Virus record (IMG/VR): IMGVR_UViG_3300025122_000007
Location: 37,620 to 101,619 of that record
Source: a virus
Lineage: Duplodnaviria; Heunggongvirae; Uroviricota; Caudoviricetes
Reading direction: 5' to 3' (one strand)
Length of the DNA: 64,000 nt
In this document: in pieces, positions 38,044 to 42,329 of the stretch
Numbering within the stretch: the stretch's first letter is position 1
Layout: the number at the start of each line of letters is the position of its first letter
Made by a program: the position numbers and the translations under genes
The notes under the pieces: generated by a model
Seen by the model: only the letters and a program-made list of their open reading frames with translations
Databases searched by the model: none
What the model was told of the DNA's origin: nothing

Positions 38044-39207
38044 TCAGATTTCCGTACCCATCTCCACCGTCTCGCCCTCTCCAGCCAACGCCTCGATGTC
38101 CAGTTCCTCAACCGGGACCACCGGGACGAGCGTGGTGACCGGAGTCACCTTGCCGTCGAGCTCCTTCGTGATGGCTTCCACCATCTCGATGACCTCGGAC
38201 TCCTTGACCCGCGAGAGGTTGATGCACGGAATGCCGTGGACCTTCGCATAGTCTCGAATCACCGTGGGCGCTCCACCACCGGGGATGGTGGTGTCAGGCC
38301 AGTACATCACCACGTCTGCGGCCTTTTCAGGCGCGCCGACACAGGAGATGTCCACGATGCGGAGCTTCTTGGCGGACTCCTGGAGGTGCTGCCACTGCAG
38401 TTCCACCTGGCTACCGAGAGCCTCGTACAGACCGATGTTGATGGGGTTGAAGCGCTGACCGGCAAAGAAGCCGACCTGCCCTTCCGTTCCCACCGACATG
38501 CCCTGCTGGGTGCGTCGGGCCTTCTCGGCGTCGGAGAAACCGACGAGAACCGAGAACCGAGTACCGTCCTGCTGGCGATAGCGAGCCAGGTCCAGGACAG
38601 CGTTCCGAGTGCGCCGTTCCGCCCGAATGGCCTTCACCTCGGCCTTCGGGTCCTTGTCATCCTTGAGAGTCTGACGAGCCGTCGCGCGGGCGGTCGTCAA
38701 ACTCTCCAGGTACTCCGTTCCAGCCAAGGCGTATGCCTCCGCTCCACCCTCCGCATCGATGTCGATGTCGAAGTAGTCCGGAGTGGGGACAATGTCCTGC
38801 AACTCCTCACCAGTCTCCAGCGAGATGGGCAGAAGCCCGAGCATCTCACGGTAGTGGTTGGCATCGTTCCCGTTCTCGTCCTCGATGGACGGGAGCCAGG
38901 CGAGGACGACATTCGTACGGTCGGGGTCGACCTCCGAGAAGCCCTCGAGGAACGCCTGCGGTGCACCTCTGCCACCACTGGTGGTCAGGTCGATGTAGGC
39001 GGGGTCGCCTTCCGAGTCCTTGAACTCGACCTCGGCGAACATGCCACCGATGGTGCGCAGGGTGTCCATGCGCTCCGGAGGAATGTTGGCGCCGATGAAG
39101 GCGATGCGACCCGAAGGTGCGCTCTTACTGGTGTTGGTGCGAAGCTGCGCCATGACCTTGCGGACAGCGAAGCTGAGATTCGAACTGATGGTCTGTACGT
39201 CGGACAT
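38044..39207 (-). CDS. hypothetical protein, possible Rossmann/LOG-like nucleotide-binding C-terminus
   Basis: PGGGAPTVIRD resembles the LOG/SLOG PGGxGTxxE motif. Confidence 0.35.
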   Translation of the reverse strand: MSDVQTISSNLSFAVRKVMAQLRTNTSKSAPSGRIAFIGANIPPERMDTLRTIGGMFAEVEFKDSEGDPAYIDLTTSGGRGAPQAFLEGFSEVDPDRTNVVLAWLPSIEDENGNDANHYREMLGLLPISLETGEELQDIVPTPDYFDIDIDAEGGAEAYALAGTEYLESLTTARATARQTLKDDKDPKAEVKAIRAERRTRNAVLDLARYRQQDGTRFSVLVGFSDAEKARRTQQGMSVGTEGQVGFFAGQRFNPINIGLYEALGSQVELQWQHLQESAKKLRIVDISCVGAPEKAADVVMYWPDTTIPGGGAPTVIRDYAKVHGIPCINLSRVKESEVIEMVEAITKELDGKVTPVTTLVPVVPVEELDIEALAGEGETVEMGTEI

Positions 39208-39293
39208 TTGGGAACCTCCCTGTGAGTCCTGTTAGCTTACTTATGTCTATTGTCTGTAGGTAGACAACCCTTACGGCCTGTCTACCTTAAATT

Positions 39294-39494
39294 CTACTTC
39301 CTGCGTTCCTGCCACTCAAGAGCGGCCTCAACCCGTTCTGGTGTTGGGTCCTCAACCAGTGTGCACTGGCCTTCGTACCCTTCAAATCCGTTGGCGACGA
39401 AATGCCGCTCCTCTTTGAGCTGAATCATCGTCATTGCGTCTCCGGTCTGCTGAGCAGTCCGAGTACCCAACCTTTGTCCGAGATCGTCCTTCAT
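39294..39494 (-). CDS. small protein
   Basis: ORF track entry. Confidence 0.3.
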   Translation of the reverse strand: MKDDLGQRLGTRTAQQTGDAMTMIQLKEERHFVANGFEGYEGQCTLVEDPTPERVEAALEWQERRK

Positions 39495-40000
39495 AGCGTC
39501 AACTCCTGAACCTTCTCCAAGCCCTCTTTAACTGCGAGGTCTATGACTTCGATGGACTGCGCCCGGCAATACCGGACACCGTGACCCGTACCACCTCCCC
39601 AAGGCACGTCGTGATTCAGACGTGCAATGCAGAGTTGAGAGTCACGTACGATCATGATGTTTCTTGCCATCAACTTCCTCACGAAAGCAGACAGCCTCTC
39701 CCAAGCACCGTGATACTCTTCAGCAATACGATACAACTCCGGGTCCTGATGCACGCTGGGCGCAATAAGGATGCGGTTCTTCGGATGCTGAGCATGACGC
39801 TGAAAGCCCTCGGATGGCAGGCAGAGAGTCACCAGCTCGGGACGAACCCGATTAGCTCCTCTTGCATAAGCTTGGTCAGCACCGGGAGCGTTACCACTCC
39901 ACAACTCATGACCAGCTTCAACTATCCGAGCACCTAACATCTCCATCAGTGCAATCTCGGCATCACTTGATGCTCTGCTACCGATGCAACTTACCTTCAT
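39491..40000 (-). CDS. DprA/SLOG-like Rossmann-fold nucleotide-binding protein
   Basis: SGNAPGADQAYARGA motif. Confidence 0.45.
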   Translation of the reverse strand: MKVSCIGSRASSDAEIALMEMLGARIVEAGHELWSGNAPGADQAYARGANRVRPELVTLCLPSEGFQRHAQHPKNRILIAPSVHQDPELYRIAEEYHGAWERLSAFVRKLMARNIMIVRDSQLCIARLNHDVPWGGGTGHGVRYCRAQSIEVIDLAVKEGLEKVQELTL

Positions 40001-40194
40001 CTACCCTACCTCCACAAATCAACTCCCACTGTCCTATCCTGAACAGGTGAACAAGTGCCACCAACTAAGATAGAACTCAAATAGCATAACCGGGATAAAC
40101 TTAGAACAGAGAGTGATACAGCTATACGTTCTAAACTAGCTATTGGCTATGAGAAAGCGAGGCGTGTAAGCCTCTAATGCTACTTGTCTCCTCT

Positions 40195-40692
40195 TCAGGC
40201 TTGAAGTAGTAGTTGGGAGCGGCGAAGGGTAAGGAGTCGCCCAAGCCAATTCTGGCCTGGTGCTCCTCGAAGGCACTGGGGACGCTCCGGTGTACCACCG
40301 CAGTGGCAGACACCCCAGTAGTTGTCGTGCCAGGTGTTGCCTTCGACTAGGAGCCTTGTTCCAGTCTCAAGCAACTTTTGGGCGAGTCGTGGGTTGGTGT
40401 GCAGGTCAAACTTCTGCACAGTAAGGTCCCACATTATTGCTGCTTTGACAGCGTCCCAGTCAGAGCGCATATCTACGCGCTGACCCAGGCGTTTGGCCTT
40501 GCCAGGGGTGGGAGAGATCTCAATTTCCTTACGTTCAGCAAGATTGAGAGTCTTGGCAGCCTGATAGGCATGCTCCGTGGTTGGATAGGAAGCTCCGTCA
40601 AGAGTGACGACAACTTCCTGGAAGTTGGAGAGAAAGCAATTGGGACCTTGAAAGTCCCGTAGGTAGGTTGTCAATGGTGCTCCTTGAGCCAC
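40195..40692 (-). CDS. NADAR-domain protein (YbiA/DUF1768 family)
   Basis: FLSNFQ...TTEHAYQAAK signature. Confidence 0.75.
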   Translation of the reverse strand: MAQGAPLTTYLRDFQGPNCFLSNFQEVVVTLDGASYPTTEHAYQAAKTLNLAERKEIEISPTPGKAKRLGQRVDMRSDWDAVKAAIMWDLTVQKFDLHTNPRLAQKLLETGTRLLVEGNTWHDNYWGVCHCGGTPERPQCLRGAPGQNWLGRLLTLRRSQLLLQA

Positions 40693-40964
40693 GCGATGAT
40701 GATATCACCATGGCACATCTTCTGATTCTTGCCGGCGTATCGACAGGAGCAGCCCAGGATCTTGTCTTTGAGCCCCACAACAAACGTGGCGAACTCCTCG
40801 TCCTTCATCATGGCCTGGAAGTATTGCTCATAACGAGCGATAGACTCCTCCCTTGGCTCATTCGGAAGAACCTCCATGCTGATGCCGACACTGTCAGCAA
40901 AGCCAAGGCCCCGAGAGATCGGAACCTCGAACTTCTGCTCTCGAATACATACAAGCTGAGTCAT
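40671..40964 (-). CDS. small Cys/His protein (LGCSCR...CHGD motif), possibly DUF4326-like partner of NADAR
   Basis: Cys/His pattern; overlaps the NADAR gene by about 20 nt (operonic). Confidence 0.3.
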   Translation of the reverse strand: MTQLVCIREQKFEVPISRGLGFADSVGISMEVLPNEPREESIARYEQYFQAMMKDEEFATFVVGLKDKILGCSCRYAGKNQKMCHGDIIIAWLKEHH

Positions 40965-41046
40965 CGTTTTCTTCTATTGTGGAGATATAAGCAATAGCAA
41001 AGAACAAACAGGAAGCCAATTGTTTGACCAACTAAGATTCCCGTCA

Positions 41047-41529
41047 TCATTCCCTCCCGACTACAATGATGCCATCATGCATGAGATGGCGAATGCGAGG
41101 ACGAACCTCGTCTTCCCAGCTCAAGCCTCCCAAGCCACATCCAGGACGTGGCAGGAGACAGATGTCACCAGGATAGGCAAGATCACTAAGATGGTGAGCG
41201 CTCCTGACAATCAAATCAAGGTCACTTGGGTTGCGCCAATCAATCTTGGTGGGAAACGCCACCAACTTATATGTCGCTCCTATCACTCGCCCTATGACCG
41301 TAGTGTTGAAGACGTGCTTGCGCAACATCTCACCATACCTGGCATCGGGAAGCGGAGTCTGATACTCCTTGGTTGTTACGAGCCTAATATTGTCTCGAAC
41401 GTGCTTGGCAACACCCGCGCTCATAACTGCACGTCCACTGCCAGCTCTTCGAAGGTTCGTTGTCACGCAGACCATATCCGCTCGATAATAGTCTGCAAGT
41501 TGCCACAGATCACCTGTGGTCTCACGCAT
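41047..41529 (-). CDS. macrodomain protein (ADP-ribose binding/hydrolase)
   Basis: GDLWQL...MVCVTTN...GRAVMSAGV...PRPGCGLGGLSWE matches the macro signature blocks. Confidence 0.6.
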   Translation of the reverse strand: MRETTGDLWQLADYYRADMVCVTTNLRRAGSGRAVMSAGVAKHVRDNIRLVTTKEYQTPLPDARYGEMLRKHVFNTTVIGRVIGATYKLVAFPTKIDWRNPSDLDLIVRSAHHLSDLAYPGDICLLPRPGCGLGGLSWEDEVRPRIRHLMHDGIIVVGRE

Positions 41530-41834
41530 CTAAGCCTACCTCCAAGTGAACATTCCAATGAATACCCCATTGAAGCACTACATCGCCGACAGCTTCGGCT
41601 TTGGTAGCTCCAATGGATGAGTGAAGTACTCCCCCTATCATCACACTCGCTTTGAATGTAGCTCCGATGGGAGTAATCGTGATTCGCATAGGATCCATGT
41701 ACCAGTAACCTCCAATACCCATCAACTCCAACAAAATGACGGGATAACCTTAACCGACCTACAGCTGAGCAGAAGCGCTCAGCCTAACCCGTGACCTCTC
41801 ATACAGACAAGGTCACGGGCTAAACTAATGCTCC

Positions 41835-42329
41835 TTAGCGCCGTGTGTGCTTCGGGATCTTGCCACGACCCTTGCAGGGTTCGCAAGTGGTACGACTAAT
41901 CACCTGCTTGATGGAGCCATTGCCATGGCAAGGAGTGCAATCCTTGAACAAACGCCGAACCAAGACGTAGCTATCGTCGGCGTTGTAAATCCACACCCCC
42001 TTCTCTTCCTGATAGGTGGCGTACTTGTCGAGCACGAACGAGTCCACCCGAACCGCGAACTTGTTACCGAGCTCGCGAATCTTGTCTCCATCCTCCCCAC
42101 GATCAAAGAAGCACGCACCCTTGGTGAGCCCGAGCTGATACAGCATGGACTCCTGAATCCACGCCAACGCTGCACTGGCAGGAATCGGTGCAATGACCCC
42201 CCAATTGAGCGTGCTTAGCACGTACGTCTCAACGCCGTACTCGTTACGTTCACACTTCGACTTGATCTGACTGATCAGGTCTGCTTGGTCCTCGGACTTA
42301 TCCGAGATCTTGAATCGCTTATCAATCAT
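41835..42329 (-). CDS. protein with C-terminal DnaJ-type CxxCxGxG zinc finger (two repeats)
   Basis: CTPCHGNG and CEPCKGRG. Confidence 0.45.
   Translation of the reverse strand: MIDKRFKISDKSEDQADLISQIKSKCERNEYGVETYVLSTLNWGVIAPIPASAALAWIQESMLYQLGLTKGACFFDRGEDGDKIRELGNKFAVRVDSFVLDKYATYQEEKGVWIYNADDSYVLVRRLFKDCTPCHGNGSIKQVISRTTCEPCKGRGKIPKHTRR

Follow-up and report, generated by a model that had tools for sequence, protein, structure and literature searches.

A phage block of macrodomain, NADAR, DUF4326 and SLOG genes as a candidate locus for the reversal of ADP-ribosylation

The gene block and its surroundings

The window, i.e., the whole stretch of 64,000 nucleotides that was analysed, is derived from a large uncultured tailed phage and contains 30 tRNA genes; the viral setting of the block described here is evident from PHROG matches, this tRNA array and homologues on IMG/VR contigs. 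All six ORFs named in the original prediction are present on the minus strand, and they are listed below together with two small ORFs, two hairpins and a neighbouring gene.

35104–37932, minus strand: 942-aa protein, no assigned function, conserved downstream neighbour (counterpart in the related phage L005), given as context only
37983–38023, no strand: intergenic hairpin after the 387-aa gene, core CCGTGRCC...GGYCACGG
38044–39207, minus strand: divergent SLOG/DprA-like paralogue, 387 aa, with a ~150-residue insertion (hhalign, phrog_768)
39294–39494, minus strand: 66-aa ORF, no assigned function, called on all source contigs
39491–40000, minus strand: SLOG superfamily, DprA-like protein, 169 aa (phrog_768, AF2 model, Foldseek)
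40195–40674 (159 aa, TTG start) or 40195–40692 (165 aa, GTG start), minus strand: YbiA-type NADAR, predicted N-glycosidic ADP-ribose hydrolase (PF08719, TIGR02464)
40671–40964, minus strand: DUF4326 protein, 97 aa (PF14216, 2e-9, 38.4 bits, cut-off 25)
41047–41529, minus strand: DarG2/AdfM-like macrodomain protein, 160 aa, predicted ADP-ribosyl glycohydrolase (family profile, AdfM alignment)
41522–41698, minus strand: 58-aa ORF, no assigned function, called as a gene on the source contig
41785–41822, no strand: intergenic hairpin between the zinc-finger gene and the 58-aa/macrodomain pair, same core
41835–42329, minus strand: 164-aa protein with a C-terminal DnaJ-type zinc finger (two CXXCXGXG motifs)

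The macrodomain, DUF4326, NADAR and SLOG genes follow each other in this order on the minus strand and encode four separate polypeptides. The packing is tight: the 3′ end of the 58-aa ORF overlaps the macrodomain start codon by 8 nt, 4 nt are shared by the DUF4326 stop and the NADAR start and another 4 nt by the SLOG stop and the start of the 66-aa ORF, and the sub-pairs are spaced by gaps of 82–194 nt. The TTG at 40674 is the probable start of the NADAR protein (159 aa) and is also the choice of other gene callers; with it the gene runs into the DUF4326 stop, and such an overlap suggests that the two genes are translationally coupled. No promoter or terminator signals above chance were found. 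The 58-aa and 66-aa ORFs, neither of which has a Pfam, PHROG or PADLOC match, are further members of the block that were omitted from the earlier list. By our own arithmetic, four specified genes would be strictly consecutive among ~200 genes with P ~3e-6, and this, together with the recurrence in L005 and L017 (see below), makes the gene block real and beyond chance.

The two hairpins bracket the block, and their shared core is matched twice in the window against 0 matches expected from shuffles. The zinc-finger gene had been counted as part of the module; its two motifs are present as described, but the Pfam match (PF00684, 7.7e-4, 20 bits) lies below the cut-off of 32.7; there is also a match to phrog_8897 (1.1e-5). 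Membership in the module was not supported: L005 has no counterpart of the gene, and no co-occurrence was found. On the other side, the 942-aa protein is 30% identical to an 898-aa protein at the equivalent position in L005; it has no match in Pfam, PHROG, PADLOC or NCBIfam, and none by tblastn among cultured phages.

The two putative erasers

The NADAR assignment made originally for 40195–40692 was borne out, with scores above cut-off for both PF08719 (E 4.2e-24, 86 bits, cut-off 35) and TIGR02464, the “riboflavin-intermediate N-glycosidase” model (85.6 bits, cut-off 73.7), and with a match to phrog_1017 (8.9e-35). Structural relatives are E. coli YbiA (2b3w, 1.6e-12) and the NADAR protein 8bau (6.6e-4), with whose conserved glutamates E40 and E117 (165-aa numbering) align; two such NADAR glutamates have been named as E43 and E125 (PMC11543638). 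Placement in the gp30.3 clade was considered and rejected, the window protein having a Glu in the last strand where gp30.3 has a His, and the Phage_30_3 model reaching only E 0.05. No link was established between the window NADAR and the tested Bas32 protein. Hydrolysis of guanine-linked ADP-ribose has been reported across NADAR subfamilies (PMC11125620, PMC11543638), and DarT1 was neutralised by every phage NADAR assayed, these coming from three independent clades (PMC11257639). E. coli YbiA removed ADP-ribose from guanine in vitro, yet left cells unprotected against DarT1 (PMC11125620).

The macrodomain protein itself has no direct match to the Macro model of Pfam, but 51 of its 62 homologues match PF01661, and the family profile finds DarG macrodomains at ~1e-24 (5m3i, 2.6e-24; 5m31, 1.2e-23), followed by 7omu (3.5e-17) and OARD1 (TARG1; 1e-13). 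DarG is the sole PADLOC and NCBIfam match. When PhiKZ AdfM was aligned with the family profile using hhalign, the probability was 99.5% (E 2.2e-22), and N25 and K95 of the window protein, both invariant across the 62 homologues, were placed opposite AdfM N23 and K78. These AdfM residues have in turn been equated with N22 and K80 of T. aquaticus DarG2 (PMC13309987). The macrodomain proposed originally was confirmed at the family level, and it is of the DarG2/AdfM type, in which the catalytic Asn and Lys are retained. Its clade is not known to be that of the Appr1p phosphatase macrodomains. TARG1-class macrodomains also act on protein-linked and phosphate-linked ADP-ribose, so that the window protein may have substrates other than DNA-linked ADP-ribose.

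The DUF4326 and SLOG proteins

What had been described as a small Cys/His partner at 40671–40964 does overlap the NADAR gene, but it is identified here as a DUF4326 protein, a family that has been placed in a rhodanese-phosphatase clade (PMC9503650).

Both proteins predicted to be SLOG/DprA-like were upheld. The 169-aa protein matches phrog_768 (“DprA-like”) at 5.8e-31, and its AF2 model (pLDDT 96.5) has the SLOG/DprA-like fold, with DprA as the best PDB matches in Foldseek (4ljk and 5mll, TM 0.62–0.65), further matches to Moco-carrier, ShosA, LOG (5zi9, 5its) and ThsA-SLOG (7uxs) structures, and phage “DprA-like” proteins in BFVD at TM values up to 0.91. G-S-R, SGNAxGAD, RN and GGTG are invariant motifs of its family. 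The extra domains of DprA are missing. The profile match to H. pylori DprA takes in a conserved G-S/T-R motif with which the domain begins. R52 is among the ssDNA-binding arginines of that protein (PMC12961424) and, if the chain numbering corresponds, is probably the arginine of this motif. The 387-aa paralogue was recognized by hhalign against the 169-aa family (96.9% probability, E 1.9e-10, residues 29–356) and by phrog_768 (2e-6, residues 262–342). Its insertion is largely helical in the AF2 model (pLDDT 80), with which a fold search gave no informative match; its nucleotide-binding motif is degenerate, GADQ is not conserved, and a set of 1.84 billion proteins yielded no more than 6 representatives.

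Recurrence in other viral loci

The block is syntenic in the related phage L005, at 30–50% amino-acid identity. In L017, an unrelated viral contig of an independent lineage, Macro, NADAR and a DUF4326::SLOG fusion stand in a row, and in a further locus SLOG is followed by DUF4326 (L080). The same four domains co-occur genome-wide and as fusions in DNA viruses (PMC9503650). The linkage is recurrent, but obligatory stacking is not supported: of 65 viral loci that carry the window macrodomain family, just 1 has NADAR adjoining the macrodomain gene, and most also lack the other block genes. The NADAR position is an exchangeable slot, because in the closest relative it is occupied by an unrelated 246-aa gene.

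What the block might do

The original reading, reversal of ADP-ribosylation as a counter-defence, is reasonable given a DarG2/AdfM-type macrodomain and the demonstrated neutralisation of DarTG1 by NADARs of several phage clades (PMC11257639) and of DarTG2 by AdfM (PMC13309987), with homology as its footing; from homology we infer the substrates, the targets and the anti-defence effect of the block. With slightly better than an even chance, in our judgement, the macrodomain and NADAR proteins would be two erasers that strip DarT-type ADP-ribose from phage DNA. Host DarT-type toxins would attach ADP-ribose to single-stranded phage DNA, the thymine adducts of DarT2 would be reversed by the macrodomain and the guanine adducts of DarT1 by NADAR, and, once the adducts were gone, phage replication could proceed. 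DUF4326 and the DprA-like SLOG would belong to the same functional neighbourhood, most likely in nucleotide-side processing or binding, with ribose-phosphate remnants, soluble ADP-ribose derivatives or ssDNA as candidate substrates. Against such DNA erasers speak the missed Pfam model and a PADLOC DarG score of the macrodomain (8.5e-10) that is far weaker than that of AdfM (4.4e-39), the other substrates of TARG1-class macrodomains, and a NADAR that is YbiA-type, like the E. coli protein that gave no protection, passes TIGR02464, is swapped in the closest relative and rarely adjoins this macrodomain family.

A compatible alternative, which we hold to be possible but rather unlikely, is that soluble ADP-ribose-derived immune signals or toxins are degraded instead of DNA adducts: cyclic ADPR isomers of TIR/Thoeris-type systems, ADPr-1′′-phosphate or related molecules, in a division of labour that assigns the distal ribose to the macrodomain, N-glycosidic bonds to NADAR and SLOG, and terminal phosphates to DUF4326. 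Iyer et al. proposed this model for phages in which Macro, NADAR, SLOG and DUF4326 are co-located or fused (PMC9503650, section 3.7.4), and it is in line with a SLOG fold common to the cADPR-binding ThsA SLOG and the LOG nucleotide N-glycosidases, with the resemblance of the invariant RN and GGTG motifs to the predicted AMP site of ORF83 (R89, N90 and T112; bioRxiv 10.1101/2025.06.06.658234), and with a NadE-like NAD synthase 9 kb from the block. Yet the nearest solved or validated relatives of the macrodomain family are the DNA-specific DarG and AdfM, all NADARs tested to date act on base-linked DNA ADP-ribose (PMC11125620, PMC11257639), phage SLOG and DUF4326 proteins are without demonstrated activity on soluble ADPr signals, and the 169-aa SLOG resembles ssDNA-binding DprA above ThsA and LOG.

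That same resemblance would fit a genuine mediator of recombination, able to bind ssDNA and load a recombinase, with the two erasers as independent accessory genes nearby and a block that is not one functional unit; the span of the H. pylori DprA match, the gaps between sub-pairs and the many macrodomain loci without the other genes agree with it. We rate it as highly improbable, given the L017 fusion next to Macro and NADAR, the SLOG fusions with Macro, NADAR and DUF4326 on record (PMC9503650), the missing DprA domains, and the report that the related ORF83 lacks the DprA dimerisation and RecA-binding residues (bioRxiv 10.1101/2025.06.06.658234). Phage RNA repair or NAD housekeeping also seems improbable. 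Here the block would clear by-products of the NAD-using repair of cleaved tRNAs (ADP-ribose 1′′-phosphate, 1′′-2′′ cyclic phosphate and the like) or else detoxify intermediates of the NAD or riboflavin pathways, a NADAR role in NAD-dependent RNA repair having been predicted by de Souza and Aravind (cited in PMC11543638, PMC9503650). The tRNA genes, two HAD_SAK_2 RNA-repair-type HAD proteins and one Metallophos phosphoesterase elsewhere in the window, the NAD synthase, the TIGR02464 score and the “phosphatase” label of phrog_335, which the macrodomain protein matches, would suit this role. The KptA/Tpt1, RNA ligase and 2H phosphoesterase families were, however, not found among the 98 ORFs scanned, the macrodomain clade is DarG/TARG1-like, and the RNA-related genes lie >10 kb away in a compositionally distinct tRNA region.

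Comparison with known systems

The combination of Macro, NADAR, SLOG and DUF4326, originally not recognized, is not new and has already been described in other phages: Iyer, Burroughs, Anantharaman and Aravind reported viral neighbourhoods and fusions of these domains in 2022 (PMC9503650, section 3.7.4, Fig 5h), and a jumbo-phage survey likewise found such combinations (PMC7824862). Shared with the neighbourhoods of 2022, a computational description without assigned substrates, are the four families side by side in a large phage and the DUF4326–SLOG link (fused in L017), whereas the window has separate polypeptides and, in addition, another SLOG paralogue that has diverged strongly and contains a large insertion.

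Both eraser folds are common to the DarG antitoxins of DarTG1 and DarTG2 (PMC11543638; 5m31, 5m3i), where they serve as the catalytic domains, but the setting here is viral rather than a bacterial defence island, the block has neither a DarT gene nearby nor a C-terminal DarT-binding domain, and the NCBIfam DarG model, whose cut-off is 250 bits, scores 38. The window macrodomain can be compared with AdfM (PhiKZ gp104), the chimallivirus DarG2-like macrodomain anti-DarT factor that neutralises DarTG2 (PMC13309987); both are stand-alone orphans of ~160 aa without DarT or a DarT-binding domain and with aligned Asn and Lys, but they are only 27% identical, the window protein has the weaker DarG matches, and there is no evidence of a phage nucleus in the window phage. 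The anti-DarT1 NADARs AdfN (T4 gp30.3), NADAR-Bas32 and NADAR-Bas60 (PMC11257639) resemble the window NADAR as stand-alone phage proteins with conserved catalytic glutamates, the latter being set apart from AdfN by its YbiA subfamily. Finally, the 169-aa SLOG can be compared, by description, with ORF83, a reported anti-type III Avs factor whose homologues are fused to DUF4326 (bioRxiv 10.1101/2025.06.06.658234): both are small stand-alone phage SLOG proteins with a DprA-like (for ORF83, Smf/DprA-like) annotation, and a similar R-N...T pattern is present in the window protein at R113, N114 and T138, while the best fold match is reported to be LOG proteins for ORF83 and is DprA first for the window protein.

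Organization and setting of the block

Every open reading frame (ORF) that the original prediction had placed in this cluster is present on the minus strand. The order along the coding strand, together with two intergenic hairpins that bound the block, is as follows.

Genes and hairpins of the block, in coding-strand order
41835-42329, minus strand, zinc-finger gene
41785-41822, intergenic, hairpin bounding the block on the zinc-finger side
41522-41698, minus strand, 58-aa ORF
41047-41529, minus strand, macro protein
40671-40964, minus strand, DUF4326 protein
40195-40674 (or with a start at 40692), minus strand, NADAR protein
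39491-40000, minus strand, SLOG169, a 169-aa SLOG/DprA-like protein
39294-39494, minus strand, 66-aa ORF
38044-39207, minus strand, SLOG387, a 387-aa paralogue of SLOG169
37983-38023, intergenic, hairpin bounding the block after SLOG387
35104-37932, minus strand, 942-aa protein

The 58-aa ORF overlaps the macro gene by 8 nt, DUF4326 overlaps NADAR by 4 nt (CAT-TGA / TTG start at 40674) and SLOG169 overlaps the 66-aa ORF by 4 nt, with gaps of 82 nt between macro and DUF4326, 194 nt between NADAR and SLOG169 and 86 nt between the 66-aa ORF and SLOG387. The hairpins lie in the 136-nt gap between the zinc-finger gene and the 58-aa ORF and in the 111-nt gap between SLOG387 and the 942-aa gene. They have a common stem core, TAGCCCGTGRCC ... 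GGYCACGGGCTA, and no match to this core (CCGTGRCC...GGYCACGG) is expected in shuffled sequence. As neither has a T-run after it, they do not qualify as classical terminators; they could be processing or regulatory sites. Scans for consensus promoters and terminators gave results at chance level, and Rfam had no match within 33000-46000. The third-position G+C (GC3) of the macro, NADAR, SLOG169 and 58-aa genes is 0.42-0.56 versus about 0.8 in the flanking 387-, 942- and 346-aa genes, which suggests that the core of the block had a different history from its flanks. Upstream of the zinc-finger gene, a stretch of 831 nt (42330-43160) holds only small ORFs, including a Cys-rich one of 54 aa (42402-42566), and a perfect 16-nt inverted repeat (42701-42716 / 42749-42764) that encloses a second inverted repeat (42722-42754); Rfam gave no match in this stretch.

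The window looks like a large tailed phage because it carries a minus-strand array of 30 tRNA genes that spans 1227-27104 and covers most amino acids, has almost all of its genes on one strand, and contains several cluster genes with PHROG matches and with homologues located on IMG/VR viral contigs. The contig that contains it, k141_186715 of the ENA metagenome assembly ERZ27249004, is at least 120 kb long, and several assemblies from JGI, ENA, Logan and NCBI contain near-identical copies; a megablast of region 35000-46000 against 50,697 cultured phage records found no relative at the nucleotide level. The G+C content breaks sharply at about 34 kb, from 43-47% in the tRNA-rich half (1-34000) to 55-60% beyond it (34000-64000). 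The tRNA at 6035-6108 has the anticodon CTA, that of an amber suppressor (ARAGORN labels it ‘Pyl’), and raised the question of TAG recoding; genome-wide recoding is not indicated, since TAG is the ordinary stop of 14 of 45 genes.

Among 80 ORFs at 905-63923, two encode proteins with a HAD_SAK_2 (‘Swiss Army Knife’ RNA-repair) domain, and a Cpn10-like co-chaperonin and a peptide deformylase are also present; nearly all of the rest have no Pfam family. Three further genes sit some 9 kb downstream of the block: 29192-30256 encodes a NadE-like NAD synthase (TIGR00552 above cut-off), 30269-31222 a calcineurin-like phosphoesterase and 31473-32513 an SPFH/Band 7 protein. All three families were also called on this phage’s other contigs reaching that far, and these genes are possibly relevant to an NAD theme.

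The macro protein

By itself, the 160-aa macro protein has no match to the Pfam Macro model, and it is the family that upholds the macrodomain originally predicted here: many of the 100 homologues found carry PF01661, which is matched by 51 of the 62 aligned family members. Against solved structures, the family profile ranked the DarG macrodomains first (5m3i, 2.6e-24; 5m31, 1.2e-23; 7omu, 3.5e-17), with human OARD1 (TARG1) behind them at 1e-13. In a profile comparison with hhalign, the protein matched AdfM (gp104 of PhiKZ, a DarG2-like macrodomain that counters DarTG2) with 99.5% probability (E 2.2e-22), and the two are 27% identical in pairwise alignment (E 1e-10). Residues N25 and K95, invariant across the family, align with N23 and K78 of AdfM and with N22 and K80 of Thermus aquaticus DarG2, the catalytic Asn/Lys pair. 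At the family level the macrodomain call is solid, and the profile matches place the protein closest to DarG, in the DarG2/AdfM-like clade.

The protein consists of the macro domain only, with no C-terminal DarT-binding domain; it scored 38 bits against NCBIfam NF048014 (cut-off 250), and the PADLOC DarG match is confined to positions 62-134 of 329. The 98 ORFs scanned included no ART family, and there is no darT gene nearby. In cultured phages, the clade is present in 19 records.

The NADAR protein

The NADAR assignment held, with both PF08719 (86.1 bits, cut-off 35.1) and NCBIfam TIGR02464 (85.6 bits, cut-off 73.7) above their cut-offs. PMC11543638 describes two conserved glutamates, and the window protein has both (165-aa numbering): E117 lines up with the one in the last strand of YbiA (2b3w) and 8bau, E40 with the other. 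AdfN, the T4 gp30.3-type phage NADAR that counters DarTG1, has a His at the last-strand position, whereas the window protein has Glu there, and PF08010 (Phage_30_3) was not matched (E 0.05, 13.9 bits vs a cut-off of 36); the protein is accordingly placed, as a prediction from its sequence, in the YbiA subfamily and not in the gp30.3 clade. Hydrolysis of guanine-linked ADP-ribose has been shown for every NADAR subfamily tested (PMC11125620), and phage NADARs of three independent clades neutralise DarTG1 (PMC11257639).

NADAR-like genes are found in 456 cultured phage records. A tie to the tested NADAR-Bas32 through Bacteriophage Eos (48% identity) was considered and is not claimed, because no other phage record contains a near-identical copy of the Eos gene. 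An apparent natural loss of NADAR in another contig (L007) was rejected: the difference lies in gene calling, and the DNA is identical over the gene. Two models of bacterial NADARs that act against phages were matched below threshold: NF053876 of NCBIfam (‘NADAR family anti-phage protein’, 2.5e-10) and PDC-M42C of PADLOC (2.8e-9). These matches indicate that NADAR is used by both the phage and the host sides.

DUF4326 and the two SLOG proteins

What had been described as a small Cys/His partner overlapping NADAR is indeed an ORF, and its identity is DUF4326: it matched PF14216 with 38.4 bits (cut-off 25), and the orthologue in the closest syntenic relative (L005) scored 39.9 bits. Similar genes occur in 59 cultured phage records. 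PMC9503650 places DUF4326 in a rhodanese-phosphatase clade and predicts a role in trimming ribose-linked phosphates.

SLOG169 matched phrog_768 “DprA-like” at 5.8e-31, and its AlphaFold model (AF2) has a pLDDT of 96.5. Among solved structures, the top Foldseek matches of this model were all SLOG proteins (DprA, Moco-carrier proteins, ShosA, LOG and the ThsA SLOG domain), and among predicted viral structures the model matched “DprA-like” proteins of phages, with TM values of up to 0.91; the Pfam DprA and LDcluster4 matches were under cut-off. The SLOG/DprA-like call for this gene was thus borne out by phrog_768 and the all-SLOG Foldseek matches, and the modelled protein is predicted to be a Rossmannoid SLOG fold of DprA-like type. 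At the sequence level, the alignment with H. pylori DprA is limited to the N-terminal G-S-R motif, the extra DprA domains being absent, and the ssDNA-binding R52 of that protein presumably lies within the aligned motif. SLOG169 could be a DprA-like ssDNA binder, given the aligned G-S-R; it could also be a LOG-like nucleotide N-glycosidase, or a sensor or sponge of ADPR-derived signals. Similar genes occur in 615 cultured phage records.

SLOG387 aligned with the SLOG169 family by hhalign over residues 29-356 (96.9% probability, E 1.9e-10). It carries an insertion of about 150 residues, and its nucleotide-loop motif, GADQ in the SLOG169 family, is degenerate; its AF2 model (pLDDT 80) had no meaningful Foldseek match (TM ~0.2), so the assignment rests on hhalign and PHROG. 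A word-indexed search found no homologues, and an exhaustive search of 1.84 billion proteins found six representatives of this rare family.

ShosA and PsyrA are DprA-like antitoxins of PRTase toxin-antitoxin defence systems, and in PADLOC the N-terminal 50 residues of the SLOG sequence gave weak matches to both (PsyrA, 7.5e-5; ShosA, 1.4e-3). The ShosTA papers report no phage mimic.

Recurrence of the association

Macro, DUF4326, NADAR and SLOG169 are four consecutive genes (39491-41529). In L005, at 30-50% protein identity, the order is macro, DUF4326, a 246-aa protein (10812-11552), SLOG169, a small ORF, a SLOG387-like gene and a gene of about 900 aa. The 246-aa protein is unrelated to NADAR (hhalign probability 0.3%; no Pfam match above cut-off), which suggests that the NADAR position is an exchangeable slot for accessory genes. 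The 942-aa protein is kept in L005 in the same position at 30% identity; it had no match in Pfam, PHROGs, PADLOC or NCBIfam, and none in cultured phages by tblastn.

In an independent lineage (L017, about 30% identity and different flanks), consecutive genes encode Macro, NADAR and a DUF4326::SLOG fusion, with all of these domains confirmed by Pfam; the 942-aa ORF of L017 was discarded as a counterpart of the window’s, the two being alike in length only. A further contig (L080) has SLOG followed by DUF4326. Among 65 viral loci with this macro family, NADAR lies within 6 kb only in L017, and DUF4326 (searched for with Pfam and with seeds free of the DUF4326::SLOG fusion) or SLOG lies near macro in only a handful. 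The association of the four domains is recurrent and not obligatory; taken singly, the components are common in cultured phages. No linkage to the module was found for the zinc-finger gene; its protein has two CXXCXGXG motifs in residues 131-159 and scored 20.1 bits against PF00684 (cut-off 32.7).

Proposed function

A counter-defence function, as first predicted, is plausible for this set of genes and has support from homology. The best-supported mechanism, which we hold to be somewhat probable, is that of an orphan antitoxin-like eraser pair that would clean ADP-ribose off phage ssDNA, because the macro protein matches AdfM with N25/K95, NADAR keeps E40/E117, and AdfM and the phage NADARs offer precedents. 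If this prediction holds, one phage would have adjacent erasers for both known DarT chemistries, thymine and guanine; the block would also be a convenient place in nature to obtain divergent counter-defence enzymes of the AdfM-like and NADAR types, and it would offer a compact setting in which to test the DUF4326 and SLOG/DprA-like phage proteins that accompany them.

The model of Iyer et al., in which the block would degrade soluble ADPr-derived immune signals, is compatible with the eraser mechanism, and we regard it as a tentative possibility. It is unlikely that the whole block is a set of orphan antitoxin mimics, with macro resembling DarG2, NADAR resembling DarG1 and the SLOGs with DUF4326 resembling ShosA/PsyrA or the phage SLOG protein ORF83; the same unlikely proposal would make of SLOG387, with its insertion, a specialised new member. 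If true, one operon-like unit would disarm several unrelated abortive-infection systems. Slightly more doubtful again is a role in RNA repair or NAD housekeeping, for which the tRNA array, the two HAD_SAK_2 proteins, a Metallophos protein and the NadE-like synthase in the window speak; the 98 ORFs scanned yielded no KptA, RNA ligase or 2H enzyme. That the block holds a genuine recombination mediator with unrelated neighbours seems very improbable.

Comparison with known systems

A DarG antitoxin of the type II toxin-antitoxin kind has a DarT-binding C-terminus and an adjacent darT, whereas the window macro protein has neither, and with its NF048014 score far under cut-off it is predicted to be an AdfM-like orphan and not a DarG antitoxin. 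AdfM, which strips DarT2-made ADP-ribose from DNA and shields chimalliviruses against DarTG2 (PMC13309987), is likewise an orphan macro protein with the aligned Asn/Lys, though the window protein is only 27% identical to it.

The two reported anti-type III Avs factors are a phage DNA ligase, ORF55, and the small SLOG protein ORF83, whose giant-virus homologues carry DUF4326 (bioRxiv 10.1101/2025.06.06.658234). The window phage has one gene of each type, DNA ligase and SLOG; its ATP-dependent DNA ligase (3534-4631) is adjoined by a BCS1-like AAA ATPase (2232-3518).

The combination, which the original prediction did not recognise, had already been described: Iyer et al. (2022, PMC9503650) reported that viruses combine SLOG with Macro and NADAR in conserved neighbourhoods and in fusions, often with DUF4326 fused, and a jumbo-phage survey reports the same combination (PMC7824862). 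Two of the four components of the 2022 neighbourhood were experimentally validated in 2024-2026. The window matches that neighbourhood, with the four domains co-located in a DNA virus and recurring in L005 and L017; this kind of block is not new, and the neighbourhood predicted in 2022 is extended by it.
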